This document shows positions 1 to 56,384 of a stretch of 64,000 nt of DNA, one piece after another; the first letter of the stretch is position 1, and the number at the start of each line of letters is the position of its first letter. The notes beneath the pieces were generated by a model. The model saw only the letters and a list, made by a program, of their open reading frames with translations. It searched no databases and was not told the origin of the DNA. The stretch spans positions 142,712-206,711 of the forward strand of contig JAVBJX010000004.1 in assembly GCA_031546705.1 (NCBI GenBank), read 5' to 3'. The DNA comes from Bacillales bacterium. GTDB lineage: Bacteria; Bacillota; Bacilli; Bacillales; JAVBJX01. Both the position numbers and the translations under genes were made by a program.

Positions 1-2037
1 CAACATAGAGTGAATATGCATAAAAGAAAGTTTATAAATATCAGACATAATTTGATTAAAATCCAAACAATTTGTTTTTTGAACAACTTTAATAACTCTT
101 GCCATTCCGATAAATTCCTTTGGAGAGGTAGAGCATAAATATCCCATATTATCTTTCTTGTAGTAGAGACTTTGTTCCGTCACCCATATATTTTTATCAT
201 ATTTATCATAAATAGCCATGCGACGATTAGCGTTCTTCAATATTTCGATGTAATCGAATGTAATGCCCATTCTGGATAATTTTTCTTCAATAAAAGTAAG
301 ATCTTCCCGACAGAATCCATCTCGATGAAATGTAATATGTTTTGGCACCTCAGCATATCTCTCTTTGTAAGAATGAATGGTATCATAAATAATTTCTTCT
401 ATGGTTGCTGTACTGATTTTTTCGCCAGCTTCATTTGTTGATAAAGACTTTTGCTTAATCATCGTTCCATCTTTGCCAATAATCTGGATAATTCCAGAGG
501 CATGTTTTCCATCTTCATGACTCACATCTAAGCCAATGAAACAATCAGAGTTAAGATTTTCACCAAGAACCCAAGGTTGTAAACCTGATTTCACATAAAT
601 GCCCAACAAAATATTTAAAATGGTGTAATGAGACTTAGACAATTCTAAAAGATCATTTGAAAACGAAATAAATTGAGTAACAATATCTTGTTTGCCTCCA
701 AACTCTTTTTTGATTGTTTTATATGCATTATTTATGAACTGTTCCGAAGCAATGACAATCACAGTGCCCTCGAAAGATTTTGAGATGGATTTTAATTCAT
801 ACGCTAAATCTGCGGAATTAAAAAAATTCTTCTCTAGTTTACCACGCAGTTCACGTGGTTTTTCCGAAACAATTAAGTTAACACCTAATTCAAAAGATTT
901 TTCTATTAATAACTTTGTTAATTTTCCTACATTTCTCCTCGTTTCTTCATTTTGTTGTAGGAGCGGGTCCACGAAAAAGCTGACGCGGGCTTCTTTTCCT
1001 TTGTAAACACCACCCTTTTTCAAACCCTCACTAATTTTAGTCATAGTTAATTCTTTACCGAACTTCAGTACAGGTGTGTTGGCATTCCTTATTTCGTAAC
1101 CTAAATTTACTGCTCTTACATTTTCTTTAGGGAACTCAAGCATTGGCAATTTTAACAACAGCTCACGAGTTTCTTTGAAAAGTTCCGTCATTTTTTCTTT
1201 CGGACTCATTTTGACTGTTTTAGAAGCAGTATTTCTTAAATGCATAGGTAATGATTCAAGCGAACAGCTAAGTTTTAATAACTGAGGTAAATAAGGAAAA
1301 ACTTTACCTTCTTTGCTTTTTACATGAACTATCAGAGATTCTTCAGTAACACTTAACAGCTTTTTCGTGTCTCCTTTTCGCGCATAATAGCTAATCACTG
1401 ATTCTTTTAAATAAGGACTTTCTTCTCCAGCTTTATAAGGTGCTATTTCTATGAATTCATATTCGTGAGTTCTTGAATTGTTAGGATCAACAACTGAAAT
1501 TCCTTTCGCAATATTCGACTCTCCCTTATTTAGCAAAATAAGAAGGTTGTCCCGATATTCAAAGCGATGAGTGTAGTTAAATCCCACATAGATTTCGTTG
1601 TTTTCATTTACCTTAACATCAATTTGAATTGCTGGATAGATTAATAATTCACTCTTGTTAATTGACTTTGTCTTCTTTAAGCGAAATGCTCCGCGATCCA
1701 TAACATGCGTAGAACGAGATCTTTGTTCTAATTCCTTTTTAACCAATCGTTCTAATAATTCTCTTTCAAAAGATCTTTCTAAAAAAATTGACCGTTCCTC
1801 ATATTTGATACACTCATGATTATCCCAACAGCTTATTTCAAAGAAAGATGCGACATATTGTCCGAAGAAAACGATAGTTTGGAAATTATTTTGCTTGCTT
1901 AGATTATAAACAATTTTTCCTCCCTGCGAGTATCTGTTTTCCTCGTCTGACAATGGAATAGTGTACAAATGAATTTTTAAAGAAGAAGCTTTGGTTGAAG
2001 CTAACCATTCCGAAAAATAGTACTGATTCTGATTCAT
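1..2037 (-). CDS. ago: Prokaryotic Argonaute, long-A type (N-PAZ-MID-PIWI); C-terminus truncated by window edge
   Basis: Manual translation from ATG 2037 (RBS GGAGG) gives 679 open codons to base 1: MNQNQYYFSEW...FERELLERLVKK...GFNYTHRFEY...AYKTIKKEFGGKQDIVTQF (MID pocket)...NILLGIYVKSGLQPW...DCFIGLDVSHE...EAGEKI...HITFHRDG...NRRMA...DIYKLSFMHIHSML. These motifs are typical of Firmicute pAgos such as KmAgo/CbAgo. Confidence 0.95.
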   Translation of the reverse strand, partial: MNQNQYYFSEWLASTKASSLKIHLYTIPLSDEENRYSQGGKIVYNLSKQNNFQTIVFFGQYVASFFEISCWDNHECIKYEERSIFLERSFERELLERLVKKELEQRSRSTHVMDRGAFRLKKTKSINKSELLIYPAIQIDVKVNENNEIYVGFNYTHRFEYRDNLLILLNKGESNIAKGISVVDPNNSRTHEYEFIEIAPYKAGEESPYLKESVISYYARKGDTKKLLSVTEESLIVHVKSKEGKVFPYLPQLLKLSCSLESLPMHLRNTASKTVKMSPKEKMTELFKETRELLLKLPMLEFPKENVRAVNLGYEIRNANTPVLKFGKELTMTKISEGLKKGGVYKGKEARVSFFVDPLLQQNEETRRNVGKLTKLLIEKSFELGVNLIVSEKPRELRGKLEKNFFNSADLAYELKSISKSFEGTVIVIASEQFINNAYKTIKKEFGGKQDIVTQFISFSNDLLELSKSHYTILNILLGIYVKSGLQPWVLGENLNSDCFIGLDVSHEDGKHASGIIQIIGKDGTMIKQKSLSTNEAGEKISTATIEEIIYDTIHSYKERYAEVPKHITFHRDGFCREDLTFIEEKLSRMGITFDYIEILKNANRRMAIYDKYDKNIWVTEQSLYYKKDNMGYLCSTSPKEFIGMARVIKVVQKTNCLDFNQIMSDIYKLSFMHIHSML

Positions 2038-34235: not shown

Positions 34236-37200
34236 TTACTCTTCATCTCTTATATTCTTCACTAATAAATTATTTGTTATCTCCAAACTACGCTCATAAT
34301 CAAAACTATCCATCGCTTCAGAAATACACGTTAGTTCAGCATCGATTTCTTCTCCAAATGTGAACTTCTTAAGTTTATCCAACTCTTTTCTTGCACTCGT
34401 ATCATCAAAACCATCGAGAGCACTATATATCCCCTCAAGAGTGGTATGAAGTAGTTCCTTGTCTCCCTGCGGACGGAGGGTTGCTTCTTCTTTAAAAATG
34501 CTATCTAGTTGTCTTCTAAATTCTTCTAACTGTTCCAGTAAAGGAGGAAAATATTCTTGACAAAATTCAAAATCATTTGCCTTCGCTGCCTCTTCTAGTT
34601 TCCCAGCCTGTTCCGATATATACATCGCTCCAATATTAGCGAAAGAACCTTTGATTCCATGGACTGAAATAGCAAATTTATTTAACTCTATTTTTAAAAA
34701 CAACTGCATTTCTTCGCATAATTGTGGTAGCTTTCTATTCACTAAAACAAGTGATTGTTCATACACATCTTGCATTCCTTGAACTCGTTCAAGACCTAAT
34801 TCTACATTAAGTCCTGTAACATTTGTTGCTAACTGTAACTTATCTGTATAGCCTTGCTTCAGATCTCCTTTTCTCTCACGTTTCACGGAAACTTTCTCTT
34901 TTGGAAGCCATTTTGCTAGTATTTGATTCAATAATATTTTATCTATTGGTTTTGATAAGAAATCATTCATTCCTGCGGATAGAAACATTTCTCTAGCCCC
35001 AGCAACAGCATTAGCTGTTAGAGCAATGATCGGTAACTCTTTGTACTTCTCCCCAAAACTTCTAATCACAGTTGTCGCTTCTATCCCATCCATTTCTGGC
35101 ATCATATGATCCATAAACACTAAATCATAATCCTTCTCCAGCACTTTCTCGAGTGCTTCTTTCCCAGAAAAAGCCATATCACAATCAATTGAGCATAGTT
35201 TTAACAAACCTGCACCAACGTGAAGATTAATTTCATTGTCATCAACTAGCAAAATATTTGCTTCTGGGGCATAAATGAACTCAAAGATGTCTTCTTGATT
35301 AGTAAGTTGTGTTTCATCTCCTAGAATCAGTGGTATTTCGATATGAAACGTACTACCCACTCCATACTCACTATCTATTGAAATATGTCCATCCATCATT
35401 TCTACTAAATTTTTCGTAATAGATAGCCCTAGTCCAGTGCCTACAACTTGTCTATTTTTTTTCGTATCCGCTTGTTCAAAAGGACGAAACAGATGAGCTA
35501 TGTCTTCTGCCTTTATTCCTCTTCCTGTATCTTCTATATCAAACTGAATCTTATCTTCATGAATCATCACTTTGAATTTGACGTGTCCAGATTTTATAAA
35601 TTTGATAGCATTACCTAGAATATTGACAAGGATTTGTCTTAGTCGTACATCGTCTCCATACAGACAAATAGGCATATAATTCACTGGCACTTCTAAAATA
35701 AATTCCACGTTTTCTTTCCCTTGCACTGCAAAAGACATAATAGAGGCTACGTTATCTACAAGTAACGGAAAATGATAATGTATCGGAATTAAATTTAACT
35801 TTCCCGCTTCAATTTTTGATAGGTCAAGGATATCATTAATAATACCCAGTAAAGAGGAAGAAGAAATTTTAATATCGTTTACATACCCGAATTGCCTTAA
35901 AGATAAATCTTCAGACAATAGTAACTCTGACATACCGATAATAGCATTCATCGGTGTCCTGATTTCATGAGACATATTCGCTAAAAATTGATTTTTTACT
36001 TTCGTTGCACTTTCTGCAATCATTCTTGCCTTATTTGCCTCTTCCGTCATTAATTGTAATTCACTTGTTCTCTCTTCTACTTTTTCTTCTAGTTCTTCTG
36101 AAAACTTCTTCTGTTTTTCCGATAGTTCATAGAAATGCATAATAACAATAAGCATATTTAATAACACAAAAATGATTAAGCCTACTGGCACTTGATCTCC
36201 TCTTGTAAAAACATTTGGCAATATTTGTGCTGTGTATAACATGTCATTGATGCCGGCCCATGCCAACATGAGAAAACCTAGGCCCCATAACACAATTTTC
36301 CGTTTATCTTCACTAACCCTTAATTCCCTAATCATTCCATAAATAATTAATAAAATATCCACACCTGTAACTATGTCGTAGGACACCAATAATTGTGTAT
36401 ATACCCTTGAATCTAACACAAAAACACTAAGGCAAAACAACATTGTTACAATCAAAATAGCTTGTATTAAGCGTTTTGGAATAGCTTTTGGGAAAAGCTC
36501 AGTGAAAAAAAGAAACAGAAACAGCACCCCAAGATAAAAAGAAATATATTCCGCTATAAGTCCAATAGTTGCTGTCATATTCGGAAGAATATAATAGGCA
36601 ATATATTCCGTAATTAACATTTGCCTAACAAAAATCATCAGACACGTCAATGCAAAATACAAAAATAATTTTTGTTTTGAATAAAAAAAGTAAATACTGA
36701 TGAGCGAAACAAAAAAGGCAAGTAAATAACCAGCAATGATTGAAAATCGAAATAAACTCGCACTTGCATATGTTAACATAGTTGCTTGATCAGCAAACTT
36801 TACACTTGCGGTTATACCACTACTTCGATGGTGAAAGTTAGAAATTTGAATTAAAATTTCAATCTTTCCATTTTTGGAAGGAAAGTACAAGACATTCTTA
36901 CCAGTTTCAGGAATCATTTCCTCCCTTGTCTTCCCAACTTTTCCTTTCCCATGATACTCTTCACCATTGACAAAAATTCGGTAGGCATAGTTCATATATG
37001 TAAACGAGGCTCCATAAAAAACACCATCGTCTCCCGTATTTATATCCATCTTATATGTTCCATATTTGACGTTTGAAAGGTTCTTATCTGGTTGATTATT
37101 ATGTTCTAGTGCAAGAGGAACTATCACTTTTGTGCTTTTATGTATAGAATTCAAATCAGTTGGAGAAATAAATTGATTTGAATAAAAATTCCATACCCCA

Positions 37201-37430
37201 TCCAAATCAATTACTTTACCATTCATATTCTCATAATTTACTTCACCATCTATAATATTTACATCTTCTTCAGGTATAATTGATGTCAATAAAGTCCGAA
37301 TTACCAAAGCAATTAATAAAACACAAATAATTCTAATTCCCCATTTCAACCATGTCAATTTTTTCAATTTATTGTTCACATCCCTTGTATTCCTAACTAC
37401 TATTGTCCGAGTCATTGGGAATTTTGTCAA
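34236..37430 (-). CDS. Hybrid sensor histidine kinase (extracellular sugar-binding-like domain + 7TM-DISM + HisKA + HATPase + REC + Hpt)
   Basis: IDLDGVWNFY; 7 TM segments; FLANMSHEIRTPMN; GTGLGL; VDDN...FMDHMMP...SKP; VHGIKG Hpt. Exact start uncertain. Confidence 0.88.
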   Translation of the reverse strand: MTKFPMTRTIVVRNTRDVNNKLKKLTWLKWGIRIICVLLIALVIRTLLTSIIPEEDVNIIDGEVNYENMNGKVIDLDGVWNFYSNQFISPTDLNSIHKSTKVIVPLALEHNNQPDKNLSNVKYGTYKMDINTGDDGVFYGASFTYMNYAYRIFVNGEEYHGKGKVGKTREEMIPETGKNVLYFPSKNGKIEILIQISNFHHRSSGITASVKFADQATMLTYASASLFRFSIIAGYLLAFFVSLISIYFFYSKQKLFLYFALTCLMIFVRQMLITEYIAYYILPNMTATIGLIAEYISFYLGVLFLFLFFTELFPKAIPKRLIQAILIVTMLFCLSVFVLDSRVYTQLLVSYDIVTGVDILLIIYGMIRELRVSEDKRKIVLWGLGFLMLAWAGINDMLYTAQILPNVFTRGDQVPVGLIIFVLLNMLIVIMHFYELSEKQKKFSEELEEKVEERTSELQLMTEEANKARMIAESATKVKNQFLANMSHEIRTPMNAIIGMSELLLSEDLSLRQFGYVNDIKISSSSLLGIINDILDLSKIEAGKLNLIPIHYHFPLLVDNVASIMSFAVQGKENVEFILEVPVNYMPICLYGDDVRLRQILVNILGNAIKFIKSGHVKFKVMIHEDKIQFDIEDTGRGIKAEDIAHLFRPFEQADTKKNRQVVGTGLGLSITKNLVEMMDGHISIDSEYGVGSTFHIEIPLILGDETQLTNQEDIFEFIYAPEANILLVDDNEINLHVGAGLLKLCSIDCDMAFSGKEALEKVLEKDYDLVFMDHMMPEMDGIEATTVIRSFGEKYKELPIIALTANAVAGAREMFLSAGMNDFLSKPIDKILLNQILAKWLPKEKVSVKRERKGDLKQGYTDKLQLATNVTGLNVELGLERVQGMQDVYEQSLVLVNRKLPQLCEEMQLFLKIELNKFAISVHGIKGSFANIGAMYISEQAGKLEEAAKANDFEFCQEYFPPLLEQLEEFRRQLDSIFKEEATLRPQGDKELLHTTLEGIYSALDGFDDTSARKELDKLKKFTFGEEIDAELTCISEAMDSFDYERSLEITNNLLVKNIRDEE

Positions 37431-40904: not shown

Positions 40905-41648
40905 ATGATTACATTATTTATTTCTCTAATAGCACTAATGATTGGATCATTTCTAAACGTCTGTATTTACCGCATTCCAAAAGAAGAATCCATTGCCTTC
41001 CCTCCTTCGCACTGTCAATCATGCCAACATAAATTAGCAGTAAATGATTTATTACCGATTGCGAGCTTTTTGTTTCTAAAAGGAAAATGCCGTTATTGTC
41101 GAAAAAAAATCTCCAAACAATATCCAATTGTAGAAGCTCTAACTACTATGACAATCACTCTACTTTTTTTACACTATGGATTAACTATTGTATTTATCAA
41201 ACTTTGTCTTGTAACTTTTCTCTTAATTATTATTAGTTTTATTGATTTAGAATATATGATTATTCCAGACAAACTACTTTTAATCGGACTTGCTATTACT
41301 GTAGTTTTATTTCCATTTGGAGATAATTCCATCCAGTCAAGTTTGCTTGGAACTGTGATTGGTGGCGGATTCTTCTACTCATTAACTTTTATCAAAAACG
41401 GAGAAGCAATGGGACATGGGGATGTAAAAATGATGCTTTGGCTTGGATTTCTATTTGGATGGAAACAAGTTATTCTAATTATACTTCTGTCATTTTGGAT
41501 TGGTGCGTTTGTATCAGTAATACTTCTTTTTCTAAAGCGAAAAAAAACGAGAGAACAGATTCCATTTGGCCCATTTATTAGTGTAAGTGCCTATATAGTT
41601 ATACTGTTTGGACAACAGATTATTTCTCTTTATCTACGATATTTGTAA
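40905..41648 (+). CDS. pilD: Prepilin peptidase/N-methyltransferase (A24)
   Basis: GSFLNVCIYRIP, CxxC...GKCRYC, catalytic IDL and MGHGDVK, IPFGPF. Confidence 0.92.
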   Translation: MITLFISLIALMIGSFLNVCIYRIPKEESIAFPPSHCQSCQHKLAVNDLLPIASFLFLKGKCRYCRKKISKQYPIVEALTTMTITLLFLHYGLTIVFIKLCLVTFLLIIISFIDLEYMIIPDKLLLIGLAITVVLFPFGDNSIQSSLLGTVIGGGFFYSLTFIKNGEAMGHGDVKMMLWLGFLFGWKQVILIILLSFWIGAFVSVILLFLKRKKTREQIPFGPFISVSAYIVILFGQQIISLYLRYL

Positions 41649-41884
41649 GTTTAATTGTTAGAAAGAGCATATAGAGTTTTTTTCCCTATGTGGCTGCTTC
41701 AAGACTTTCGTAAAAAAATTCATAAAAATACCTACTCAGTTGATGATATCCAAGTGGTAATACTACTTGTTTTTTCTTGTAATATACGCACTAATCCTTG
41801 GACATGTGAAAAAGCTACAAGAGGCTGTGACAAAAGGAGTGAAAAACACCCCGATTGTCACAGCCTCTCTTTTCTTATCTTTAC

Positions 41885-44800
41885 TTAGTTTGATCCGCTT
41901 GGTTTCACAGCAGTGATAGTTAATTTATCTTTGCCAGTCACCCACGGAAGCGGTGTTGTTAATTTATTCGTAACATCACTTAATGTCACCTTTATTTCCG
42001 ATATTGTAAGCGAAACTTCGTCTTTTACTTCTCCTCTTACTTTAAAATTGTAACCCATATCAATCATAACAGTGACTGAAACAGAAGTATTAGCCGCTAA
42101 TTTATTAGCAAAATCTATTCTTCCATTTACTATGCCTATTTTTGCCCCAGCATCTCCTTGTACTCTTAACACCTCCATAGGAGATTGAATACCAGCTATT
42201 TGTAGGGTGAGAGCATCTTTTTGTGCTGGATCTATACTTAGACTATCTCCAACTTTAAACATTACTTTTGCCATCATTTTTCCTTTTTCTACAATGTTTA
42301 TAGAATTTTTTTCATTTACACTTGTAATAGTAAGGTTCGAGATTATACTACTTGAATTATATATCAAAAATGGTCCGACAATAACTTTTTTCATATCATC
42401 CGCTGTCCAAACAGCAAGATAGTACTTACCTACTTTTTGAAAAGCAACTGTTGTGTCTTCTGTTGTTGTAGTTGTCCAAGTGCCTGTAAAGTTTTCTAGT
42501 GTTATTGAATCTGCAGTGCTTTCAATCAATTGATACTTTGCTTCCAATTCTTCTTCAGCAATAGTAATAGTTGCCGTAGCATCTGTTGTTAATTTCTCTG
42601 GTGGATTCAATATCTTTATTTGATCTCCAGTTGTTTCTGTTGTGAATTTGTACAAATGCCCACTATTATCCTTTACTTGGATCGTAAGTTTTGGAATCTT
42701 CACCACAAACGGACCAACAATGACTTTTTTCATATCATCTTTTGTCCAAACAGCAAGATAATAGTTACCAGTTACTTTTGGAAAATCAATTGTAACTGTT
42801 GTGTCTCCTGTTGTTGCAGTTTCCCATTTTGGAGAATTTATAGGATCTGTAGGGAAGTTTGTCATTGTTATAGTCACTGGATTACTAGCGATAGTAAACA
42901 ATTGATACTTTGCTTCCAAGTCTACTGCATCCAGAGTAATAATTGCTTGAGCTTTTCCTACTATCTTTCCTTCTACACCCAAGGTTTTTGGTTGATCTCC
43001 AGTCACATCTGTGGAGAACACCTCTCTAATAGGATTCTTATCCTTTACTTGGATCATAAATTTTGGAACTTTTACCACAAACGGACCAACAATAACTTGT
43101 TTCATTTTATCTTTTGTCTGAACAAGAAGATAATAGGTGCCAGATACTGTTGAAAAATCAATTGTCGTTGTTCCTGCTGTTATATTTTCCCAACCACTCG
43201 TTGGAAAATTTGTGAATATCGGTGCAGTATCACTTGGAATCAATTGATATTGCGATGGCAATTCTTTTGGATCTAACGTAATAATTGCTTGCGATTTTCC
43301 TGTTAACTTTCCTTCTAATCCCAAGGTTTGTATTTGATCTCCAGTCGTTTCAGTTGTGAACACTTCTCTAGTGTTACTATTATCCTTTACTTGTACCGTA
43401 AGTTTTGGAACCTTCACCCAATACGGACCAGCAACGATTAATTTTGTACCACTTGCTCTCATAACACGAACAGCAAGATAATATTTCCCATATCCTGTTG
43501 GAAAAGCAACTGTTGTGTCTGCAGTAGTTAAATTTGTCCATTTATTTTCAGGAATGCTTGTTGCTGTTGGATCTGTATCGCTTGGAATAAATTGATATTG
43601 CGATTTTGGCGTATTTTGAGCACCTAGTTTAACTTGAAGCCACCACGGTCCAGTAGATACACTACCAGCACCAGCCCATGCTGTTGACTCAATGCCATCT
43701 ACTGCTTTATCTGGTATGTGTTCTGAGTTCCACGTATAATTTGATATTACTGGTGTCTTTCCAAAAGTTAAGTTAACAGTAGGATTTAAGTTATTGTAAA
43801 GTTCAAACTCACTAACGATTGGTGCATATCCTACTACCGAAGTAATCAACAATTTCGCATACATTCCAGTGACAGCTGGAAATGTAATAAGTTTATTTTC
43901 TAGATCATCCGTTCCAGTAGTAGTATAGGCATCAATCCATGTGTTGCCATCATTTGAATATTGAATTGTATAACCCTTGATACGACCTCCAGCTTCTTTA
44001 TCTACAGAATTGTTTTTCACTACAATTTTCGCCTGATTAAATGTTGTACCTGTAGGAACTAATTCTTCTGGAGCAACATTAATCGTTACAGAAGCAGTTC
44101 CTGTTAACACTTTTGGGTCTTGGAAGATATTCATCTGATTTTCAAACGTTGCTGTTTCAAAATAATCTTTTTGTCCATTGTTATAGTCTACTTGCACCTT
44201 AAGCTTTGGATTATTCACCACAAACGGACCGACAACGATTTGTTTAGTACCATCAGTTCTCACAACCCGAACAGCAAGATAATATTTACCAGGTTCTATT
44301 GGAAAAGGAATTTTCATGTCTTTCGAAGTTATACTTACCCAATTACTTTCAGGAATACTTGTTGGAGCTATGTCTGTATCGGTTTTAATAAATTGATATT
44401 TAGTTGGTATTGAAGTTGCTAGTCCAACCTCAAGATACCACGTTGAACTAGCAGTGATACCACCATCAGGAGCTGTCCATTGCGTGGAAGGATTACCATC
44501 TATTGCTTTATATGCCGTGTAAAGTGTATCATATATGGCATTAGCTGATGCTACTGAACTATTTAAAGCTAAGTTAGTATCAGGAGAAGACGAAAAACTA
44601 TTATACAGTTCAAACTCTCCAATCCCTGGTGCACCTCCAAGAGTCTCACCGATCCACACTCTCGCTTTCGTTCCAGTGACAGCTGGAAATGTAATAAGTT
44701 TATTTAGTTTAGGATCAGGAACCGTTCCCGAATAACTATAAGCATCTTTCCAGTCGGAGCCATCGCCAGGTAAATACTGGATCTTATAACTCCTCATACG

Positions 44801-47560
44801 AGATGTATAGTCATAATTGCTTTTTGTGATAATTTTTGCCTGATTAAATGTTGTACCCGCTTCGTCTGGAGCAACATGAATAGTTACAGAAGCCTTTCCT
44901 GTTAACGTCTTTGGTTGCGGAAAGGTAACCGATTCAGGTCCAAACGTTGTTGTTGTGAAAATGTATTGCTGTCCAACCGTATCATCTACTTGTACTGTAA
45001 GTTTCGGATTTTGCACCAAAAACGGACCAGAAATGACTTGTTTTGTACTATTTGCTGTCTGAACAGCAACATAATATTGACCAGGTTCTGTTGGGAAAAC
45101 AACTTGCGTTTGTTCCTTAGTTAGATCAATCCAAGTAGTTGCAGGAAGGTTTGACGGATCTGGATTCGTATTGCTTTTAATAAATTGATATTGAGCTTTT
45201 GGTTGAGGATGTAGATCAACCTGAAGCCACCATGGTGCTCCAGAGAGACGAGAACCCCACCACAATGTTGTAAGATTGTTGTCTCCCGCTTTGTCTGCCC
45301 CGAATGTTGGATCCCCAGAAAATACACTACTAGCTGTTAGCGGATTATTTAAAGTTAGGTTCGGAGAAGAGTTATAATAAAGCTGCAACTCATAAACTAT
45401 TGGACAAACATCACGATCAACATTTATCGAATTAACCAACAATCTCACTTTCGTTCCGGTGACAGTAGGAAATGTAATCAGCTGATTTTCTTTAGGATCT
45501 GGAGTAGTATTCCCACCATCATAAGTATAAGCAGTTGACCATGTAGAATCATTCTGCTTCAAATACTGGATGCTATAATTTGTTAAACGACCTACTGGAT
45601 TATTTAATCCACCTGTAGATACTAGATTACCTGAGCTATCATGAGCCTGTGTTATAATTTTCACCTGATTAAATGTTGATGTTGGAGAATACAAGTCTTC
45701 TGGATCAATATTAATAGTTGCAGTAGCATTTTCTTTTAACGTCTTTGATGGCGAAAAATAATCTGTTTGATTTCCACTAGCTGTTGTTGTGAAAGAATAT
45801 GGAGTTCCAACCGTATCATCTACTTTTATACTGAGTTCACTCGGTACCAAAAACGGACCAGAAATGACTTGTTTTGTCTCACGAGCTGTCCGAACAACAA
45901 GATAATATTGATCAGACTGTTTTGGAAAAGCAACTACCGTGTCTACCGTAGTTATATCTGTCCAATTACCTGCAAGAATACTTGCTGAATCTGGAGTTGT
46001 CTGGCTTTTAATAAATTGATATTGAGCTGTTTCTGGTGTAGTATTTGGTGGATTTAATTCGACTGCAAGCCACCACTGTTTGCCAGCAGGGGGACCTGGA
46101 TTGTTATAATCATTAGCTGCCCATCTTGTTCCTGGACTGCCATCTGTTGCTTTATTTGCTACCACATCGGAATTACCTGTATACGATTCACTAGCTGTTG
46201 TTGGCTTATTAAAAGTTAAGTTTGTAATAGAAGAAGAAAGACTATTATAAAGTTCAAGTTCGTAAACTACTGGACCACCAGTTGTACTAGGAGACTTATT
46301 TATTACTGAATCAATCAACAATCTCGCTCTCGTTCCAGTGACGGCAGGAAATGAAATAAGTTGATCTCCTTGGTTAAGTTTCGGATCCACACCTGTTCCA
46401 GTATAACTATAGGCATCTAACCATGTTTTACCATTGTTCGAGTACTGAATTTTATAATGTCCTATACGAGCTGAAAAATCTCCCTGAGAGCCATTTGTTA
46501 TAATTCTCGCTTGATTAAATGTTGTGCTTGAGCCCATTAGTTCTTCTTTAGCAATATTAATAGTTGCCGAAGCATTTCCTTTTAACGTTATTAATGAAGA
46601 CGGATCTGTTTGATTTCCATTCGTTCTTGTTTGAAAATCATATTTTGGTCCGTCTATATCCTTTACTTGTATCGCAAGTTTCGGATTATCCACCACAAAT
46701 GGACAAGAAATGATTTGTTTCGTCCCGCCTGCTGTTCGAACGACAAGATAATATTGACCATGTGCTGTTGGAAAATCAACTTGCGTTGCTGCCTGAGTTA
46801 TATCATTCCAATTAGTTGCAGGAATGCTTGATGGAGCCGTCGTACTTTTAATAAATTGATATTGAGCTGTTGGTGTATCCACTAAATTGACTGCAAGCCA
46901 CCACTGTTTGCCATTAGGGGGATAATCATTCGAATTCCAACATGAGTTGGGGTCATTATCTACTGCGTTGCTTCCTGCATACGATGAATTTGCATTATTA
47001 CCATACGTTTCACTAACTGTTACTGATTTATTTAAAGTTAAATTAGTAGAAGCAGGTGTATCATAAAGTTGAAAATCATAAATTTGTGGACCACCCATTG
47101 AGATTACCGAAGTAACCAACACTCTCACTTTCGCTCCAGTTACAGGAGAAGGAAGTGTAACAGTTTGAGTAATAATTGCATTCTGATCCGTTGTCGACGT
47201 AGTCTGTTCCTGACCAAAATCTAACCATGTAGAACCGTTCAAATACTGTATTTTATACGTCTTTATACGATTAAATTTAATTTTCGCCTGATTAAATGTT
47301 ATACCTGAGGCAACTAAGTCTTCTATAGGAACATTAATAGTTGCAAAAGCATTCTCATTTAACTTCTTTGATTGCAAAGATGAATCTGTTTGAGTTCCAC
47401 TTGTTGCCGCAGAATATGATCCATCAACTGTATTGACTTGTACCGTAAATTGACTCGGACTCGCTGATCGAACAGCGGCAAATGCACGAAAATTACCCAA
47501 CTCACATAGCTGAAAAGTAAGTACTATGACCAAAATTATTAAAGAAACCTTTCTTTTCAT
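41885..47560 (-). CDS. Large secreted repeat protein with five permuted F5/8C (discoidin/CBM32-like) domains; putative pilus-associated adhesin
   Basis: Sec-type signal (AFA|A), 8 beta-rich repeats, repeated YKIQYS.DG.TW and NL..NK..TAS...A.DG...T.W...WWL.V.L motifs; last gene of the pilin cluster. Confidence 0.75.
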   Translation of the reverse strand: MKRKVSLIILVIVLTFQLCELGNFRAFAAVRSASPSQFTVQVNTVDGSYSAATSGTQTDSSLQSKKLNENAFATINVPIEDLVASGITFNQAKIKFNRIKTYKIQYLNGSTWLDFGQEQTTSTTDQNAIITQTVTLPSPVTGAKVRVLVTSVISMGGPQIYDFQLYDTPASTNLTLNKSVTVSETYGNNANSSYAGSNAVDNDPNSCWNSNDYPPNGKQWWLAVNLVDTPTAQYQFIKSTTAPSSIPATNWNDITQAATQVDFPTAHGQYYLVVRTAGGTKQIISCPFVVDNPKLAIQVKDIDGPKYDFQTRTNGNQTDPSSLITLKGNASATINIAKEELMGSSTTFNQARIITNGSQGDFSARIGHYKIQYSNNGKTWLDAYSYTGTGVDPKLNQGDQLISFPAVTGTRARLLIDSVINKSPSTTGGPVVYELELYNSLSSSITNLTFNKPTTASESYTGNSDVVANKATDGSPGTRWAANDYNNPGPPAGKQWWLAVELNPPNTTPETAQYQFIKSQTTPDSASILAGNWTDITTVDTVVAFPKQSDQYYLVVRTARETKQVISGPFLVPSELSIKVDDTVGTPYSFTTTASGNQTDYFSPSKTLKENATATINIDPEDLYSPTSTFNQVKIITQAHDSSGNLVSTGGLNNPVGRLTNYSIQYLKQNDSTWSTAYTYDGGNTTPDPKENQLITFPTVTGTKVRLLVNSINVDRDVCPIVYELQLYYNSSPNLTLNNPLTASSVFSGDPTFGADKAGDNNLTTLWWGSRLSGAPWWLQVDLHPQPKAQYQFIKSNTNPDPSNLPATTWIDLTKEQTQVVFPTEPGQYYVAVQTANSTKQVISGPFLVQNPKLTVQVDDTVGQQYIFTTTTFGPESVTFPQPKTLTGKASVTIHVAPDEAGTTFNQAKIITKSNYDYTSRMRSYKIQYLPGDGSDWKDAYSYSGTVPDPKLNKLITFPAVTGTKARVWIGETLGGAPGIGEFELYNSFSSSPDTNLALNSSVASANAIYDTLYTAYKAIDGNPSTQWTAPDGGITASSTWYLEVGLATSIPTKYQFIKTDTDIAPTSIPESNWVSITSKDMKIPFPIEPGKYYLAVRVVRTDGTKQIVVGPFVVNNPKLKVQVDYNNGQKDYFETATFENQMNIFQDPKVLTGTASVTINVAPEELVPTGTTFNQAKIVVKNNSVDKEAGGRIKGYTIQYSNDGNTWIDAYTTTGTDDLENKLITFPAVTGMYAKLLITSVVGYAPIVSEFELYNNLNPTVNLTFGKTPVISNYTWNSEHIPDKAVDGIESTAWAGAGSVSTGPWWLQVKLGAQNTPKSQYQFIPSDTDPTATSIPENKWTNLTTADTTVAFPTGYGKYYLAVRVMRASGTKLIVAGPYWVKVPKLTVQVKDNSNTREVFTTETTGDQIQTLGLEGKLTGKSQAIITLDPKELPSQYQLIPSDTAPIFTNFPTSGWENITAGTTTIDFSTVSGTYYLLVQTKDKMKQVIVGPFVVKVPKFMIQVKDKNPIREVFSTDVTGDQPKTLGVEGKIVGKAQAIITLDAVDLEAKYQLFTIASNPVTITMTNFPTDPINSPKWETATTGDTTVTIDFPKVTGNYYLAVWTKDDMKKVIVGPFVVKIPKLTIQVKDNSGHLYKFTTETTGDQIKILNPPEKLTTDATATITIAEEELEAKYQLIESTADSITLENFTGTWTTTTTEDTTVAFQKVGKYYLAVWTADDMKKVIVGPFLIYNSSSIISNLTITSVNEKNSINIVEKGKMMAKVMFKVGDSLSIDPAQKDALTLQIAGIQSPMEVLRVQGDAGAKIGIVNGRIDFANKLAANTSVSVTVMIDMGYNFKVRGEVKDEVSLTISEIKVTLSDVTNKLTTPLPWVTGKDKLTITAVKPSGSN

Positions 47561-48069
47561 TACTCTACATCCCCTTTATTCCTTAAAGCAATTTGTGTTG
47601 AAAAAGTTTGAGTTGTTTCGTTGTTAGTTCCAGTGATATCAATTCGTACTAACCTAGAATTTTCTAAAGCAACATTGGCTACTCCACTGACAATGGAAAA
47701 AGCGGTAACACGTTCAAAGTTCCTTGCTCTAATCGACATTTCATTTCCAGAAAGAATATCCAATTGAGCCGTTGTCGTATTATATTGAAGACATTGACGA
47801 ACAGGCTGCCTACTTACTGGAAAATCGAAGCAATATGTAGTCACTCCACCTGCTACCACACTCCTAACGGATGAAGCTTCTCTCACAAGCAAAGCTACCT
47901 GTTCAGAAATATCTTCTACATTCATTTGCACATTTACTTGGCGATCAGCACGATGAAATACATGAACATTAAATATTAGAAATGAACTAATCGCCGTAAT
48001 AAGAATCGTAGATACTGCCATACCAATAACCAATTCGATAAGAGTAAACCCTTTTGAGTTTAGTTTCAT
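47560..48069 (-). CDS. Minor pilin (PilW-like)
   Basis: Class III signal KG|FTLIELVIG. Confidence 0.85.
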   Translation of the reverse strand: MKLNSKGFTLIELVIGMAVSTILITAISSFLIFNVHVFHRADRQVNVQMNVEDISEQVALLVREASSVRSVVAGGVTTYCFDFPVSRQPVRQCLQYNTTTAQLDILSGNEMSIRARNFERVTAFSIVSGVANVALENSRLVRIDITGTNNETTQTFSTQIALRNKGDVE

Positions 48070-48114
48070 TATGTTCACCTTCCCCAAAAATCTCTCTATC
48101 ACTTTGTTTTGTCA

Positions 48115-50406
48115 TTACTCTACTACTCGCCAATTCTCCATCCTTACAATCTGTCTTAAATTATTCGTATCTTGTTCATCATTGAAAAAAGGATTTAGTG
48201 GAGCAGTAAGACCAAACCCTCTTCTGAGTGCAGGCGTATTTTTGATAGTTTCTTTGATGTTCACTGTAGTAGTAGCATCATTAGTAATTTTAGAATTTCC
48301 ATCAAAATAAATACTTCCCTTTGTAATAACAACTCCTTTAAACTGTACATCTCCTAGAAAATAAACGTCTCCTGTTGACACAATAACACCCTCAACTATG
48401 CTTGAGTTACTAAAATCAAATACGTTTGATGAAGGAGTAGTTATGCCTGTTGTGCCTGCATTTGAGCCACGCACATGCACAATATCATTATTAGTTCGAA
48501 CAATAGTTAGTTTATTTACCGCACTAACATCAACCCCAGCAACATCTGCACTTGAAAAATCTGCTGTATTTGCAAAATTAAAATGGTTATCAATAGTATC
48601 CTGAACTAACAAATCACCTGTTGAAGAATCACCAAATTTGTTTACTTGTTTGTTATAATCATTTCTTATGGTTTTCTTTGTTTCTTCTAAATCATCAACA
48701 TTAGGTGTGGCAGGAAATACGTCATTGTTAAAAATGGTTGCACCTAATGAGTATTTAACACTATCAATAGTAGTAAATGTAACCCCATCAGTCCCACCAA
48801 AGTTGATAATTGCAGCATCTGGCGTTGTTAACCTCAATTTTCTGTCCTGTTTTGCTGCGTAATAGAAATAGTCTGCTCGATCTTTTGAATTAAATGTTTG
48901 TGGGTCTCCATTCGCATCTTTCCCACAGCCATACTTCTCGGCAATTAAGAGTGGTAATTTCTCCTCAAAACATATATTATTACCTTCAAATTTCTCTGCA
49001 TCTCCAGTATTAATTAAATAGTCTTCCATAGTTTTCTTTTTTAAGAATGTTCCATACGCACGTTCATTGCCTAACAATGCAATACTTGTACCTGACTCAA
49101 CTTCCTTATCGGCATCATCTGGTACATTAGAGAAGGCAACTCCAGCAATAAAAACCTGACCCGTAATTTCTAATTTTGATCCCTCAACTTCTCCAACATC
49201 AGCACTATTTAGTATAATACTACTACTACTATTAGCAGTTGGATTGGCAGTTTCCGAACCGTCAGAAAAACCGTAATAATTTCCATCGATCTGCACGATT
49301 GACTTTTCTCCGTTTAATGAAAGGTCATTTTTTGTAGATACATTCCCAGTCACTTTAATATTACTTCCCCCAATAACTGGATCCGTTCCAACAGATTTTG
49401 CATACACATTCCCAGTCACCTCAATCTTTGATTGACCATAACCTGTATGGAGGGAACTACCTGTTACAACTTGACCATTCACTTTAAGTTGTGCATCAAT
49501 TTTAGCAACATCCTTATTCCCAACAACAACTCCGCTGTAATCTTCTGTTGTTAATCCTGTTCCTTTTGCGTAGATGTTTCCTTTTACATCAACAGATCCA
49601 CCATTTACCACAATATTGTTTTCTGCTGTTAGTGCTTTAGTCAATAGAATATCTGGTGTTTTCGGATCTACTTGTCCAAGTTGAGAAAGCGATGCCTCAT
49701 AAGGAGGTATACCAATTTTCAGAGTCGCTTTGATGTTATGTTCTTTTAAATCCTTCTGTTGATACGTGGACTTGATTGGTAGTTCCATTACAGCAACTGG
49801 ATCTGGGGTAGTTGTGAATGGTTTATAGTTACCTGAAACATTATCAACATCAATCTGTACATTGACACGCTTCCCTGATTCTGCTTTGTTATCAGTAGTT
49901 GGTAAATCATTTGATATGCTCTCAGGTAAGAATTCAGCCCAACCATCCTTCTGAGTTGTAGCTATCGTTGTTATTTCACCATTCATTAAAGAAGCATAAC
50001 TTTCTCGATATCTCTCACTGCTCCATGTTTTTACCGTATCTTCATTGATTGTACCATCTTCTTTATAGAAAGCTGGTAGTTCAGCGTATTCACTTTCATC
50101 ATCTTCTTGGTATTGTTTGTACTTTTCATACTGTATTCGTTGTTTTTCTAATTCCGCTAACGTTTTCGTCTTTGCATCTTCATGTGCAGCTTTACTTTCC
50201 TCCTGAACCATTTGCATCATGCCAGCATAGGCTTTTTCAAGCCCAGACTCTACTGCATATATGGAAAAAATTTCTTTCTTCTTTACTTGTTGAAGCTGAA
50301 AATGACTGAGAGTTAAAGCAAGAATAGACATTCCCAAAATACTTAACATAGAAACAGTAACAACTAATGTCATTAGACTTGAACCACGTTGATTGGAAAC
50401 TTTCAT
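48115..50406 (-). CDS. Large PilX/GspK-like minor pilin
   Basis: RG|SSLMTLVV lacking Glu5; YAVESGLE motif; beta-rich V.GNVYA repeats. Confidence 0.78.
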   Translation of the reverse strand: MKVSNQRGSSLMTLVVTVSMLSILGMSILALTLSHFQLQQVKKKEIFSIYAVESGLEKAYAGMMQMVQEESKAAHEDAKTKTLAELEKQRIQYEKYKQYQEDDESEYAELPAFYKEDGTINEDTVKTWSSERYRESYASLMNGEITTIATTQKDGWAEFLPESISNDLPTTDNKAESGKRVNVQIDVDNVSGNYKPFTTTPDPVAVMELPIKSTYQQKDLKEHNIKATLKIGIPPYEASLSQLGQVDPKTPDILLTKALTAENNIVVNGGSVDVKGNIYAKGTGLTTEDYSGVVVGNKDVAKIDAQLKVNGQVVTGSSLHTGYGQSKIEVTGNVYAKSVGTDPVIGGSNIKVTGNVSTKNDLSLNGEKSIVQIDGNYYGFSDGSETANPTANSSSSIILNSADVGEVEGSKLEITGQVFIAGVAFSNVPDDADKEVESGTSIALLGNERAYGTFLKKKTMEDYLINTGDAEKFEGNNICFEEKLPLLIAEKYGCGKDANGDPQTFNSKDRADYFYYAAKQDRKLRLTTPDAAIINFGGTDGVTFTTIDSVKYSLGATIFNNDVFPATPNVDDLEETKKTIRNDYNKQVNKFGDSSTGDLLVQDTIDNHFNFANTADFSSADVAGVDVSAVNKLTIVRTNNDIVHVRGSNAGTTGITTPSSNVFDFSNSSIVEGVIVSTGDVYFLGDVQFKGVVITKGSIYFDGNSKITNDATTTVNIKETIKNTPALRRGFGLTAPLNPFFNDEQDTNNLRQIVRMENWRVVE

Positions 50407-50450: not shown

Positions 50451-51515
50451 TCACTTCGTTTTTACTGATTCGATTTCAAAACTTCCAAAGTCGTTTTGAA
50501 TTAGGATATTCACCCGATACACAAGACTTCCTCCTGTTGGTGTTGATTGATTATCTAAAGTGCCAATATAATTCGTATACCTAGCCGCTCCTTTTATAGT
50601 AGGAGGTATGGCAGGTCCAGTTGGATCAGCATTTTTCAAATACAATTCAAGCTGTTTGCCTGTTTCATTTTTTACATTTATGATAATACCAGCTATATTC
50701 CCACATAGTATATTTAGTCTCAATGGATCGTTAGCAGGACTTGTTGTAGTTCTTCCACCAGCATCAAATGTAACCGTAGCACCACCAATATCTGTAGTAG
50801 CTTTCAACAAGATGTTACCTGCAACAAGCACATCTGATATATCTAAATTAGCATCTGTATGATGGTCTATTACATCAATATTTGTTGCTCCGTTGATGTT
50901 GATAGTTGGTCTTACTGAATTTGCAATTTGATTTACATCCTCCAAATAAAGTTTAAGTTTTTTGTCGGATATGTTGTTTTCGACTTCAATGGTAATATGC
51001 TTGCCATTACATATTAAAGTAAGTTCTAAATCCGCTCCATCATAGTTAGGAATTTGTATTATGGATTTAAACTCCCCTCCCGTTGAAATGATATTATTAC
51101 CAATACTACTTATTGTAATGACCTCATTATTCAACTCCGTTTTCAGCGAAATTGTAGAATAATCGGTAAGGTTTGTATTTGTTAAATCTACTGTTATTTT
51201 CATTGGTGTTATAAATTTTTTGTTTGGATCTGGCGTTAGTGTAATCGTAGCACCTTCTGCTACGTTCGTATAAACAGTATCATCTGTAGTCAAAAAACCA
51301 TTATTATCCACAAGGACTGTATCAAGTGATGTAAAAGGTGTTGCCCGTATTTGCTCCATATATCCCTGTGCTAATTCTTTCATCTCAATACTAGCTTCTG
51401 AATAGCTATTATTTTTAATTGCTGCAACAAATAAATTGGACAGTGGAACAAGTACCAAAGCAAGAAGAGCAATTGTAATAATACTTTCTATTAACGTTAC
51501 CCCTTTATTATTCAT
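50451..51515 (-). CDS. Minor pilin (PilV-like)
   Basis: KG|VTLIESIITIAL; LAQGYMEQIR. Confidence 0.82.
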   Translation of the reverse strand: MNNKGVTLIESIITIALLALVLVPLSNLFVAAIKNNSYSEASIEMKELAQGYMEQIRATPFTSLDTVLVDNNGFLTTDDTVYTNVAEGATITLTPDPNKKFITPMKITVDLTNTNLTDYSTISLKTELNNEVITISSIGNNIISTGGEFKSIIQIPNYDGADLELTLICNGKHITIEVENNISDKKLKLYLEDVNQIANSVRPTININGATNIDVIDHHTDANLDISDVLVAGNILLKATTDIGGATVTFDAGGRTTTSPANDPLRLNILCGNIAGIIINVKNETGKQLELYLKNADPTGPAIPPTIKGAARYTNYIGTLDNQSTPTGGSLVYRVNILIQNDFGSFEIESVKTK

Positions 51516-51526
51516 ATCCTCACCCG

Positions 51527-52822
51527 CTAGTGAACAACCTCAATATTTCCTAGTTTGCTCATAAATTTAACTCGTGGATTCTTTGTATCATCGTCTGTAA
51601 CAATTACTTGCAACGGTAATGTTGTTTTATTGATAATAGATAAATTGACACCACTTAAATCAGTTGCATCTAGTCGTGCACTACTAAAAATATTAAACAT
51701 CATCTTCTTGGAAAGAGGTGTGAATCTAACACTTTTATGAGAAGTAGGATACGATTTACCAGCTACTTTCAACTCGTAATAGTATTTCTTATTTTTTTCG
51801 TACACGTACAATTGAGCATCCTTAACTCCTTCACTATCTGCTTCTAAATAACTTGTTCCCTCTTTGTCATTTGCTTTGCCAAGTAATACTGTTGGCATAT
51901 CCGACTGAATGGGTTTAGCAATTAGAAAGAAATCAGAATTCTCCTCAGCTGTTGTAGGAATAGAGTTTGTTGTAGAATTCTCTAATGTTCTTGTAGTATC
52001 TGGTGTTGACGTTCTTGTAGTATCTGGTGTTGATGTCTCTGGTGTTCTTCCTGTTGAACTAGAGAAAGGATTAATTTTTCCATATTCATTATGAATAACC
52101 CACTGTAAATAATCTAGGTCTTGTGTATATGGTTTTGGAAGTGCATAGAAATCCAGAGATATTGTACTAAAGAGTATTGGAATATCTCCACTACTTTTGT
52201 CTTGCTTAGCTGTATTCACATTATTTATCACAATTTTTCGTTTGTCCGATTCAATCGTCTGAATTAATGCCTGTAACTGCATATATGTACTACTGAAAGT
52301 AAGCGTTGTTGTTATTTTATTTAGTTTTTGTTGATCATTCGGTACTGGTGCAGGTGTTTCTGCTTGTTGAACTGAAGCTTTTTTTGACTTATCAACGAAT
52401 TGTTCGAGATAAGTTGGTGGTTGTATGACCTCTTTTTTTCCTATCACTATTTCTGATGATTGTATCTGTGAAAATGCAATATCAGCTTGGCTAATTAGGG
52501 ATTTCCCTAGTTTCTCATTCAAAAGAAGGATAAGTTGTTCTTGAATAATGCTTGGAAAAAAATGAGAAGTTTCTTCATTTATTTTCTGATTTAATGTAGC
52601 ATAGTTTTCATAAATTTTATTATTTGGATTAGCCTCTAATTGAACTTGCATTTTTTTAATTTTAGACTGTGATATTCTATCTTCTAGCGACTGAATCGCT
52701 GTAATTTGCGGTAAGAATAGAAACTTATAAGAAGTACCAATAATAACAACGACAACAAAAATAATTGATATAATCCTTTCACGTTTTGTTAAGATTGGTA
52801 ATTTTAATTTTGATAGTTTCAT
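51527..52822 (-). CDS. pilO: PilO-like protein with C-terminal extension
   Basis: LTKRERII N-terminal TM, coiled coil, FSSTYMQLQALIQTIE..KRKIVINNV, LDFY; follows pilN. Confidence 0.75.
   Translation of the reverse strand: MKLSKLKLPILTKRERIISIIFVVVVIIGTSYKFLFLPQITAIQSLEDRISQSKIKKMQVQLEANPNNKIYENYATLNQKINEETSHFFPSIIQEQLILLLNEKLGKSLISQADIAFSQIQSSEIVIGKKEVIQPPTYLEQFVDKSKKASVQQAETPAPVPNDQQKLNKITTTLTFSSTYMQLQALIQTIESDKRKIVINNVNTAKQDKSSGDIPILFSTISLDFYALPKPYTQDLDYLQWVIHNEYGKINPFSSSTGRTPETSTPDTTRTSTPDTTRTLENSTTNSIPTTAEENSDFFLIAKPIQSDMPTVLLGKANDKEGTSYLEADSEGVKDAQLYVYEKNKKYYYELKVAGKSYPTSHKSVRFTPLSKKMMFNIFSSARLDATDLSGVNLSIINKTTLPLQVIVTDDDTKNPRVKFMSKLGNIEVVH
51987..52034. repeat. 24-bp tandem duplication (TSTPDTTR x2) in the PilO linker
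   Basis: GTTCTTGTAGTATCTGGTGTTGA(C/T) twice. Confidence 0.85.
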
Positions 52823-53370
52823 TATTCATTCACATCCTTTGTTACACATTTCATCGTAACCACGTATGATGTTCCCTCTGGAGTAATTGAGATAACTTGT
52901 ACTGTTTCAATAAAAGGGAGCTGCTTTAGATTGTGTTGAAATTCAGCCACAGATTTCCTGTCACTAACATTACCTTGGATTGTTATTGAATCTGGCAAAA
53001 CAGTTAGCATGTTAAGTGTCATAATTTTAGGAATTGCTTTTGATAGTTCTAAGAACATATTGCTGTTAATTGGGTCTGCTTTATTAATGGATGCCCAAAT
53101 GCTATCAACATGTGTCTTATACTCTGTTAATTCCCTGTACTTATTTGTGGTGATATTAAATTCTTGCCGTTGTTTAACGAGTTTTGGATCACTTAAATAT
53201 TCCTCATCCTTCAAGAGTTGTTCTTCTAAGGTTGTTTTCCTATGTTCATTAACAAACCAACCTAATGGAATAAACATCAATAAAAAAATAAGAAGAAGAG
53301 GGACAACTATCTTCTTTTTTTTTGATTTCTTTTCCTTTAAAAAAGGGGAAAAAAAGTTCAAATCCTTCAT
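52822..53370 (-). CDS. pilN: PilN
   Basis: DLNFF N-terminal motif, TM, ITIQG...VAEFQHNLK. Confidence 0.85.
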   Translation of the reverse strand: MKDLNFFSPFLKEKKSKKKKIVVPLLLIFLLMFIPLGWFVNEHRKTTLEEQLLKDEEYLSDPKLVKQRQEFNITTNKYRELTEYKTHVDSIWASINKADPINSNMFLELSKAIPKIMTLNMLTVLPDSITIQGNVSDRKSVAEFQHNLKQLPFIETVQVISITPEGTSYVVTMKCVTKDVNE

Positions 53371-53378
53371 GTTCCCAC

Positions 53379-56378: not shown

Positions 56379-56384
56379 CTTATA

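Follow-up and report, generated by a model that had tools for sequence, protein, structure and literature searches.

Swapped-half F5/8C domains in the repeat modules of a giant protein encoded at the end of a type IV pilus operon

We analyzed a 64,000-nucleotide stretch of DNA from an uncultured Bacillales bacterium (the window; NCBI GenBank assembly GCA_031546705.1, contig JAVBJX010000004.1, positions 142,712 to 206,711 of the forward strand), in which an open reading frame (ORF) without internal stop, at 41885..47560 on the minus strand, encodes a giant protein of 1891 residues (P0001). We found that five of the eight repeat units of this protein carry an F5/8C-type (discoidin/CBM32) insert in which the two halves of the domain stand in reversed order, the canonical C-terminal half (C-half) preceding the canonical N-terminal half (N-half). 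Judged by sequence, these inserts are circular permutants of the PF00754 family, not collinear members of it, and structure models make it very likely that each forms a lectin domain nested within a two-part, Ig-like repeat module. CBM32 lectin domains and Ig-like repeat adhesins are both known kinds of protein; their combination here is a new variant and not a new system. The whole explanation that we favor, and consider probable rather than secure, is a rod with nested permuted lectins, which arose by capture of a piece of a tandem array and would serve as a pilus-held carbohydrate-binding adhesin or agglutinin.

P0001 consists of a Sec-type signal peptide, eight repeat units (R1 to R8) and a C-terminal domain of 156 residues, a layout read from motif positions and alignments, which also set the unit borders (Table 1). 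Each of the first five units (257-280 residues) is made of three parts: half-module A, of ~50 residues (PKLxVQV ... ATINVxPEEL), the insert, and, C-terminal to it, half-module B, of ~60 residues (QYQFIKS ... GxYYLAVRT ... GPFVV). In the last three units (113-124 residues), A is joined directly to B (..ITLDPKEL-PS-QYQLI..), as seen in the 'PKELPSQYQ' at residues 1431-1439. When all eight units were aligned, R6-R8 matched both flanks of the longer units, and a single clean gap (columns 51-240) spanned the insert. Across R1-R5, which together occupy nucleotides 47455-43409, identity to R5 is 41-48% with 50 invariant columns; R6-R8 occupy 43408-42356. A preliminary description of this DNA had proposed a scaffold of eight modules with inserts in copies 1-5 and none in copies 6-8, and the eight-row alignment bears out this scaffold, as motif positions and alignments do its repeat coordinates and copy counts. 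By module identity, the units cluster as R4/R5, R1/R2/R3 and R6/R7/R8. At the DNA level, the repeat copies, with spacings of ~800-846 nt and 340-372 nt, are only 60-90% alike, which argues for old divergence and not for an assembly artefact.

The inserts contain both halves of an F5/8C domain, but not in the collinear N-then-C order of PF00754. Whole P0001 matched this family above its gathering score (123.9 bits; cut-off 28.2) in four stretches. When the halves were scanned separately, the first halves of three of the five inserts (R1, R2 and R5) matched positions 49-125 of the 127-position profile, that of R3 matched PF22633 only, and that of R4 matched nothing in Pfam; the second halves of all five matched positions 2-44 (E 5.3e-5 to 0.031), each alone below the gathering score. 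We also built hidden Markov models (HMMs) of the halves from canonical relatives (65 C-half and 176 N-half segments), excluding P0001 as well as P0006, a protein discussed below. These models found a C-half in five of five inserts (E 6.6e-19 to 1.9e-25) and an N-half directly after each (E 3.8e-11 to 2.8e-14). Thus, the order is C then N throughout, as the preliminary description had claimed for all five inserts, and the split F5_F8_type_C matches that it had anticipated do appear in reversed order. Pfam-style collinear models evidently under-call such domains, since one of the five C-halves and all of the N-halves are below threshold when taken alone.

Along the chain, each insert runs from the 'T-F-N-x-x-K-I' strand to the canonical C-terminus ('ELELY'), then through an S/P/T-rich linker of 6-10 residues to the canonical N-terminus ('NLTLN...'), and on to the 'WWLxVxL' strand. 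Because the permuted insert begins with the first of these strands and ends with the last, its new termini are formed by the two strands of a single hairpin. We screened 153 proteins (P0001, four from the search with the whole protein, and the remainder from the search that gave the canonical relatives). Only P0001 alternates C- and N-halves in such a way that 111-115 residues separate N from C and -2 to 2 residues separate C from N; in canonical relatives the N-to-C gap is near zero. Larger gaps in six proteins of the screen were read as undetected halves. P0020, P0052, P0093 and P0144, with N-to-C gaps of 133-154 residues (about one domain period), were set aside on the same reading, probably as cases of undetected halves.

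The nature of the rearrangement was apparent from a comparison with P0005, in which four canonical F5/8C domains stand in tandem. BLASTP aligned the whole insert of R5 (unit residues 55-203) to residues 689-828 of P0005 in one unbroken match, with 63/157 identical residues (40%; E 5e-21). The matched stretch of P0005 opens at 'TSFNSVTI', just past the 'WLQVNFGAS' of one domain, runs over 'IYEFEIY - linker - NLALN' and closes at the next domain's 'WLQVNFGASTTFNS'. Thus, the insert corresponds to exactly one out-of-phase period of a canonical tandem array, the pattern by which circular permutation is classically recognized in sequence.

Such arrays are also the nearest relatives of the inserts; they occur on apiosidase-like, fucosidase, PL8 lyase and type IX secretion system (T9SS)-sorted proteins (P0005, P0007, P0008, P0009, P0012, P0014 and P0015; E down to 3.7e-59, 39-43% identity). 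The linker between domains in these arrays is equivalent to the loop that closes the permuted insert; unlike P0001, the arrays have contiguous halves, N then C, with an N-to-C gap of ~0 and no Ig-like module at the hairpin. We suggest that one out-of-phase period of a canonical tandem CBM32 array was captured in the hairpin of a module. A piece of one period would hold every strand once, could close through the adjacent canonical termini, and would have hairpin ends that suit the A/B hairpin. The composite unit may then have been duplicated to five copies; that R6-R8 cluster apart is in keeping with one insertion that preceded these duplications. The preliminary description had supposed that the permutation is what lets the lectin domains branch sideways from a rod. 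This is not obviously so: the termini of a canonical discoidin domain lie adjacent, and permutation is therefore not required for nesting. The permutation looks instead, given the match to P0005, like a by-product of how the array piece was captured. On this account, P0001 would be a clean natural case of circular permutation via a tandem array acting together with domain nesting, one in which arrays of the probable donor type still exist, so that folding and evolution can be compared directly.

A second natural case of the permuted order, in this instance not nested, appears to be P0006, a metagenomic protein of 4410 residues. P0006 has 12 discoidin C-halves, of which eight are followed within ~35 residues by a weak N-half (E 1e-4 to 0.07); its first element is a C-half and its last an N-half, with Cys-rich Ig-like BiPBP_C domains in between. 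By our reading, the cut site is the same as in P0001. In contrast to P0001, the lectins of P0006 alternate with contiguous BiPBP_C domains, and its long N-terminal region is unrelated. A literature search, with most subscription journals outside its reach, found no publication on a circularly permuted F5/8C/CBM32 domain. Among jelly-roll carbohydrate-binding modules, there is precedent in the circular permutation on record for CBM36/CBM60 (PDB 2XHH, by its entry title), although this concerns a different CBM family with 9% identity to the insert and no nesting. F5/8C/CBM32 domains, among them the modules 4ZY9/4ZXE (chitosan-binding, from Paenibacillus IK-5) and 2J1A (from GH84C of C. perfringens), are clearly homologous to both halves of the insert. 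Canonical CBM32 modules are appended to enzymes, whereas the insert is probably nested, has its halves reversed and is cut in the hairpin between the 'WLQVDLG' and 'FNxVxI' strands.

To the sequence evidence we added structure prediction with AlphaFold2. R5 was modeled alone, with the eight paralogous rows as alignment, and gave a mean predicted local distance difference test score (pLDDT) of 85.5 (predicted template modeling score 0.63), with 86-94 in the flank blocks, 70-92 in the insert blocks and 74-83 for the N-half within its own unit. A and B, taken together (model 1..267), could be superposed on single domains of the MG, FN3 or bacterial Ig-like type, with 81-95 aligned residues at Z 6-6.8. 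The C-half of the model superposes on CBM32 chains at 1.9-2.6 A and 28-35% identity; specifically, model 52..139 matches these chains over their C-terminal two thirds, best on 4zy9_A 48..130 (79 aligned, root-mean-square deviation 1.9 A, 35% identity, Z 6.6). Sequential structure aligners cannot match both permuted halves to one canonical chain. A fit of the whole insert to single jelly-roll chains was nevertheless obtained over 101-111 residues, with model 56..202 on 2xhh_A in sequence order (111 aligned, Z 6.6) and model 87..196 on 6eon_A (109 aligned, Z 7.7). Since the insert fits jelly-roll chains in order, it is one compact sandwich in the model, and we take its predicted fold to be an eight-stranded beta-sandwich (jelly-roll). 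The preliminary description had expected that AlphaFold2 of one repeat would yield an intact sandwich inside an Ig-like domain, and the model shows such an arrangement.

We considered which pieces pair with which, since the alternation of A, C, N and B along the chain can be divided in three ways. A two-unit AlphaFold2 model of R3-R4, made with four in-register rows (pLDDT 68.1), gave Ig-like matches at 1..280 and 281..545; among the matches listed, there was neither an Ig-like one on the contiguous B3+A4 nor a whole CBM32 chain across the units (N3..C4). One possibility is beads on a string, in which the permuted lectins stand free between Ig-like domains that B(i) forms with A(i+1), and A1 and B8 are left over, maybe to pair between molecules. 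B(i) and A(i+1) are contiguous across a short constant junction, and P0006 offers a protein in which C-then-N discoidin halves alternate with contiguous Ig-like domains. However, in both models A(i) together with B(i) matched single Ig/FN3/MG domains, the flanks reach pLDDT ~90 in the one-unit model, the B|A junction has a conserved Pro typical of inter-domain joints, and two orphan half-domains would be required. We thus consider this division highly unlikely. We give still less credence to a second possibility, that the N-half of one unit and the C-half of the next form canonical discoidin domains that bridge modules. In its favor, N(i) ... C(i+1) follows the canonical order, and the N-halves were not confidently placed in the two-unit model; yet all five units have a short C-to-N linker, the N-half is placed within its own unit in the one-unit model, and C1 and N5 would be left without partners. 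This was the arrangement that the preliminary description had named as contrary to its own proposal, and it found no support in the R3-R4 model.

The third division, in which all pieces pair within their own unit, alone avoids orphan halves, because the mature chain opens with A1, carries five C-then-N pairs and closes its repeats with B8. Based on the orphan count together with the one- and two-unit models, we consider it very likely that a permuted lectin domain is nested in the A+B module. Two points tell against this conclusion. In the R3-R4 model the N-halves have pLDDT <50 (residues 161-202 and 420-455), so that this model, as a test between cross-unit and within-unit pairing, leaves them unplaced; and every structural Z-score lies between 6 and 7.7, a range that the tool grades as middling, so that the evidence for the fold leans on sequence homology. 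If the nested arrangement is correct, P0001 would be a Sec-exported rod of ~200 kDa, composed of eight tandem Ig-like (MG/FN3-like) beta-sandwich modules followed by the orphan 156-residue domain, and modules 1-5 would each hold a complete F5/8C lectin, set into the hairpin whose first strand ends in '...ATINV..EEL' and whose second begins with 'QYQFI'.

Such a rod would be suited to act as a multivalent carbohydrate-binding adhesin or agglutinin. Family membership makes glycan binding by the five inserts probable, and their loops, which differ in length and sequence in the alignment, would allow different sugar specificities per copy. Five divergent lectin copies on one rod also constitute a ready panel for mapping specificity.

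The scaffold itself has few recognizable relations. The bMG6 match of P0001 scored 26.4 bits against a cut-off of 23 and covered the final 37 profile positions only, and the Atlas leads for the module were Big_13/Big_3 clusters with scores <0.9. A search for relatives of whole P0001 returned only P0001 itself and three weak PL8 lyase matches through the lectin part. Among longer proteins, both the module profile and the C-terminal domain found P0001 only; neither had a further copy in its own genome (an 83%-complete assembly of 73 contigs, and the sole member of its family among the genomes compared), and the module was absent from the 40 same-order genomes searched. In a metagenome scan with residues 1385-1891, none of 61 pattern matches was confirmed. 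P0043, P0131, P0135, P0139, P0074 and P0032, which matched from inside module A, were set aside as FN3 repeats with the common 'GYxIxxSxDGxxW' motif and not relatives of the architecture. The C-terminal domain had no Pfam match at E up to 1; its best leads were LolC among solved structures (E at least 1.7), Atlas entries of at most 0.79 and Ig_like_ice (E 0.018).

We also observed that the B halves of R6 and R7 weakly match positions 28-67 of the discoidin C-half HMM (E 0.023 and 8.5e-4; residues 1458-1489, ~43094-43189, and 1577-1602, ~42755-42832), and that MAFFT tended to pair the 'WWLxVxL' strand with the strand that ends half-module A. This resemblance may be a chance similarity of beta-strand patterns, or module and lectin may be distantly related.

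With respect to export, the preliminary description had argued for a Sec-type signal rather than a class III (prepilin) one, and for the lack of an LPXTG or SLH anchor. Both stand: the N-terminus reads by eye as MKRK..AFA|AV, and P0001 has no N_methyl/TIGR02532 match, although three neighboring motif-bearing genes do; we found no LPXTG-like motif after residue 1073 by regular expression, and no anchor family, SLH included, among its Pfam matches. With no pilin signal, LPXTG or SLH, P0001 would have to be retained through its orphan C-terminal domain or by the pilus.

The gene for P0001 is the last of a pil operon, which reads on the minus strand in the order pilB, pilT, pilC, pilin, pilM, pilN, pilO/GspM-like, the genes for proteins of 354, 763 and 180 residues, and the giant gene. 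Its ATG overlaps the TAA of the 180-residue minor pilin by one base (TAATG), as the preliminary description had reported, with an AAAGGGG ribosome-binding site upstream, and we found no terminator-like site on the minus strand from 47560 to ~50650. As the last, translationally coupled gene of the operon, P0001 would be made together with the type IV pilus. We suggest that, most likely, its C-terminal domain either attaches it to the pilus or lets the pilus deliver it. The gene order of this locus suggests that P0001, whether adhesin or cargo, is physically associated with the pilus, an idea that we advance tentatively and with somewhat less than even confidence.

The known proteins to which P0001 might best be compared are PilC/PilY1, tip adhesins of diderm type IVa pili, which are described as held by their last ~10 residues, a beta-strand that joins the sheet of a minor pilin of the PilK family (PMC13533445). 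Like P0001, PilC/PilY1 are large, Sec-exported non-pilins encoded beside minor pilins. P0001, in turn, ends in the strand-like 'KLTITAV', and the gene for the PilK-like protein of 763 residues lies two genes upstream. P0001 differs, however, in that it has no match to the family and no beta-propeller, and its host is apparently monoderm. Of the earlier proposal that P0001 may be a tip adhesin analogous to PilY1, the position beside minor pilins, the non-pilin nature and the Sec signal held up; homology to PilY1/PilC was not found. The most specific form of this proposal, by analogy, would have the 'KLTITAV' strand locked into the 763-residue PilK-like pilin, which lacks E5, and the five permuted CBM32-type domains shown to gut glycans (e.g., chitin/chitosan-like ones of an invertebrate host); we regard it as doubtful. 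Prediction of a complex between the 763-residue protein and the 156-residue C-terminal domain scored 0.00, the fold of the partner being uncertain, and speaks neither for nor against this form. A monoderm type IV pilus with adhesive modules is documented in Streptococcus sanguinis, whose PilB/PilC include a glycan-binding minor-pilin complex (PMC9934059; bioRxiv 10.1101/2021.01.27.428410). In that system, the module is grafted on a pilin with a prepilin signal, whereas P0001 is a separate protein with a Sec signal and five lectin domains. If the pilus link is true, P0001 would extend the idea of a non-pilin tip adhesin (PilC/PilY1) to monoderm type IV pili and would provide a multivalent lectin for gut colonization.

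A different view is that P0001 is merely co-transcribed with the pilus genes and acts as a free or wall-associated secreted lectin, such as an agglutinin or a binder of biofilm matrix or food particles. We consider this a real possibility, if short of an even one. P0001 is a Sec-signal non-pilin without PilY1/PilC homology, its gene is a lineage-specific singleton, and the closest relatives of its lectin domains are found on glycoside hydrolases, lyases and T9SS-sorted proteins and not on pilus proteins. Furthermore, the 20 same-order pil loci that we compared (see below) have no such partner gene. In contrast, the one-base overlap with the pilin gene and the run of sequence free of terminator-like sites argue for obligate co-expression, and a protein of 200 kDa with neither a wall-anchor family nor an LPXTG motif would otherwise be lost to the medium.

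P0001 might also depend on the pilus as cargo, carried through the wall or released after docking on the minor pilins, and not be a permanent tip adhesin. That a Sec-signal non-pilin is encoded in a pil operon, adjoining minor pilins, is compatible with this view, and the secreted colonization factors of the TcpF type are said to be such cargo of type IVb pili. P0001 has no sequence relation to TcpF-type factors, however, its operon is type IVa-like (pilT, pilMNO), and in a monoderm there is no outer membrane to be passed; we consider this fate unlikely.

Returning to the explanation of P0001 as a pilus-held lectin rod, we note several results that weaken it. First, neither P0001 nor its C-terminal 156 residues match a PilY1/PilC or pilin family in Pfam or NCBIfam. 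Second, the C-terminal domain proposed to hold it is without relatives in the protein, structure and Atlas searches, and, with no detectable orthologue of P0001, conservation cannot be used. Third, the arrangement is not shared: a pilM match occurs in 31 of 40 same-order genomes, and in pilMNO loci from 20 of these 31 (one locus each), minor pilins and a giant gene followed in 0/20. Most of these loci read pilD-pilM-pilN-pilO and then maf-radC-mreBCD-minCD, sometimes with one small pilin between. Thus, the operon of the window, with its minor pilins, giant gene and convergent pilD, is atypical for its order.

Finally, evidence of expression is ambiguous. An RNA-labeled sequencing run from an invertebrate gut metagenome (X1) holds 94% of the sampled words, in contigs with no difference from the window. 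The stretch 51891-59336 is covered by a single contig, the giant gene is spread over several, and the junction of pilin and giant gene is bridged by one (47494-48539); 41151-41801 and 59379-60000 are without contig cover and cannot be used as transcript ends. These contigs show the presence of the organism in an invertebrate gut. They are compatible with transcription of the giant gene but are not proof of it, because such libraries can hold DNA and X1 may be the window's own source, a further point to be set against our explanation.

Table 1. Features of the giant gene, its protein P0001 and the surrounding pil locus
Feature	Position in window	Strand	Basis
Whole giant gene (P0001)	41885..47560	-	ORF and translation
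Sec-type signal peptide, residues 1-28 (MKRK, hydrophobic core, AFA|AV)	47477..47560	-	reading by eye, no predictor
Unit R1, residues 36-292 (half-module A, insert, half-module B)	46685..47455	-	motifs, alignments
Insert 1, permuted F5/8C by sequence, residues 85-232, 148 aa	46865..47308	-	Pfam halves, half HMMs
Unit R2, residues 293-572	45845..46684	-	motifs, alignments
Insert 2, permuted F5/8C by sequence, residues 344-512, 169 aa	46025..46531	-	Pfam halves, half HMMs
Unit R3, residues 573-851	45008..45844	-	motifs, alignments; in two-unit model
Insert 3, permuted F5/8C by sequence, residues 626-789, 164 aa	45194..45685	-	Pfam halves, half HMMs
Unit R4, residues 852-1117	44210..45007	-	motifs, alignments; in two-unit model
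Insert 4, permuted F5/8C by sequence, residues 901-1053, 153 aa	44402..44860	-	Pfam N-half only; HMMs both halves
Unit R5, residues 1118-1384 (unit folded alone)	43409..44209	-	motifs, alignments, AlphaFold2
Insert 5, permuted F5/8C by sequence, residues 1170-1320, 151 aa	43601..44053	-	Pfam halves, half HMMs, BLASTP
Unit R6, residues 1385-1498	43067-43408	-	insert-less module
Unit R7, residues 1499-1622	42695-43066	-	insert-less module
Unit R8, residues 1623-1735	42356-42694	-	insert-less module
C-terminal domain, residues 1736-1891, 156 aa, without recognizable family; terminates in ...KDKLTITAVKPSGSN	41888..42355	-	
Terminator-like hairpin and T-run just past the giant stop, within a longer inverted repeat	41836..41852	-	
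Prepilin peptidase (A24), convergent, downstream of operon	40905..41648	+	Pfam
Minor pilin, 180 aa, prepilin motif KG|FTLIE	47560..48102	-	N_methyl/TIGR02532
Pilin-like protein, 763 aa, without Glu5 (RG|SSLMT)	48115..50406	-	GspK/PilK-like trait by reading
Minor pilin, 354 aa (N_methyl; weak PilV)	50451..51515	-	family match
pilO/GspM-like	51527-52822	-	Pfam
pilN	52822-53370	-	Pfam
pilM	53379-54437	-	Pfam
Major pilin, 144 aa	54681-55115	-	Pfam
pilC	55155-56378	-	reading of translation only
pilT	56385-57449	-	reading of translation only
pilB	57456-59126	-	reading of translation only

Some features of the neighborhood deserve mention in their own right. The pilin-like protein of 763 residues, which is unusually large for a minor pilin, had no match in Pfam or NCBIfam beyond a sub-threshold one to DUF2572. 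In the PilO/GspM-like protein, of 431 residues, we noted a duplication of low complexity ('TSTPDTTRT') and, at the C-terminal end, an extension of ~170 residues without family match. About 4.5 kb downstream of the operon, at 34236-37430 on the minus strand, lies a gene for a hybrid histidine kinase of 1064 residues (7TMR-DISM, HisKA, HATPase, receiver and Hpt domains), which may or may not regulate the pil operon. Within the giant gene itself, two antisense ORFs on the plus strand, at 42620-43153 (177 residues) and 44120-44413 (97 residues), are probably artefacts of repeat composition.

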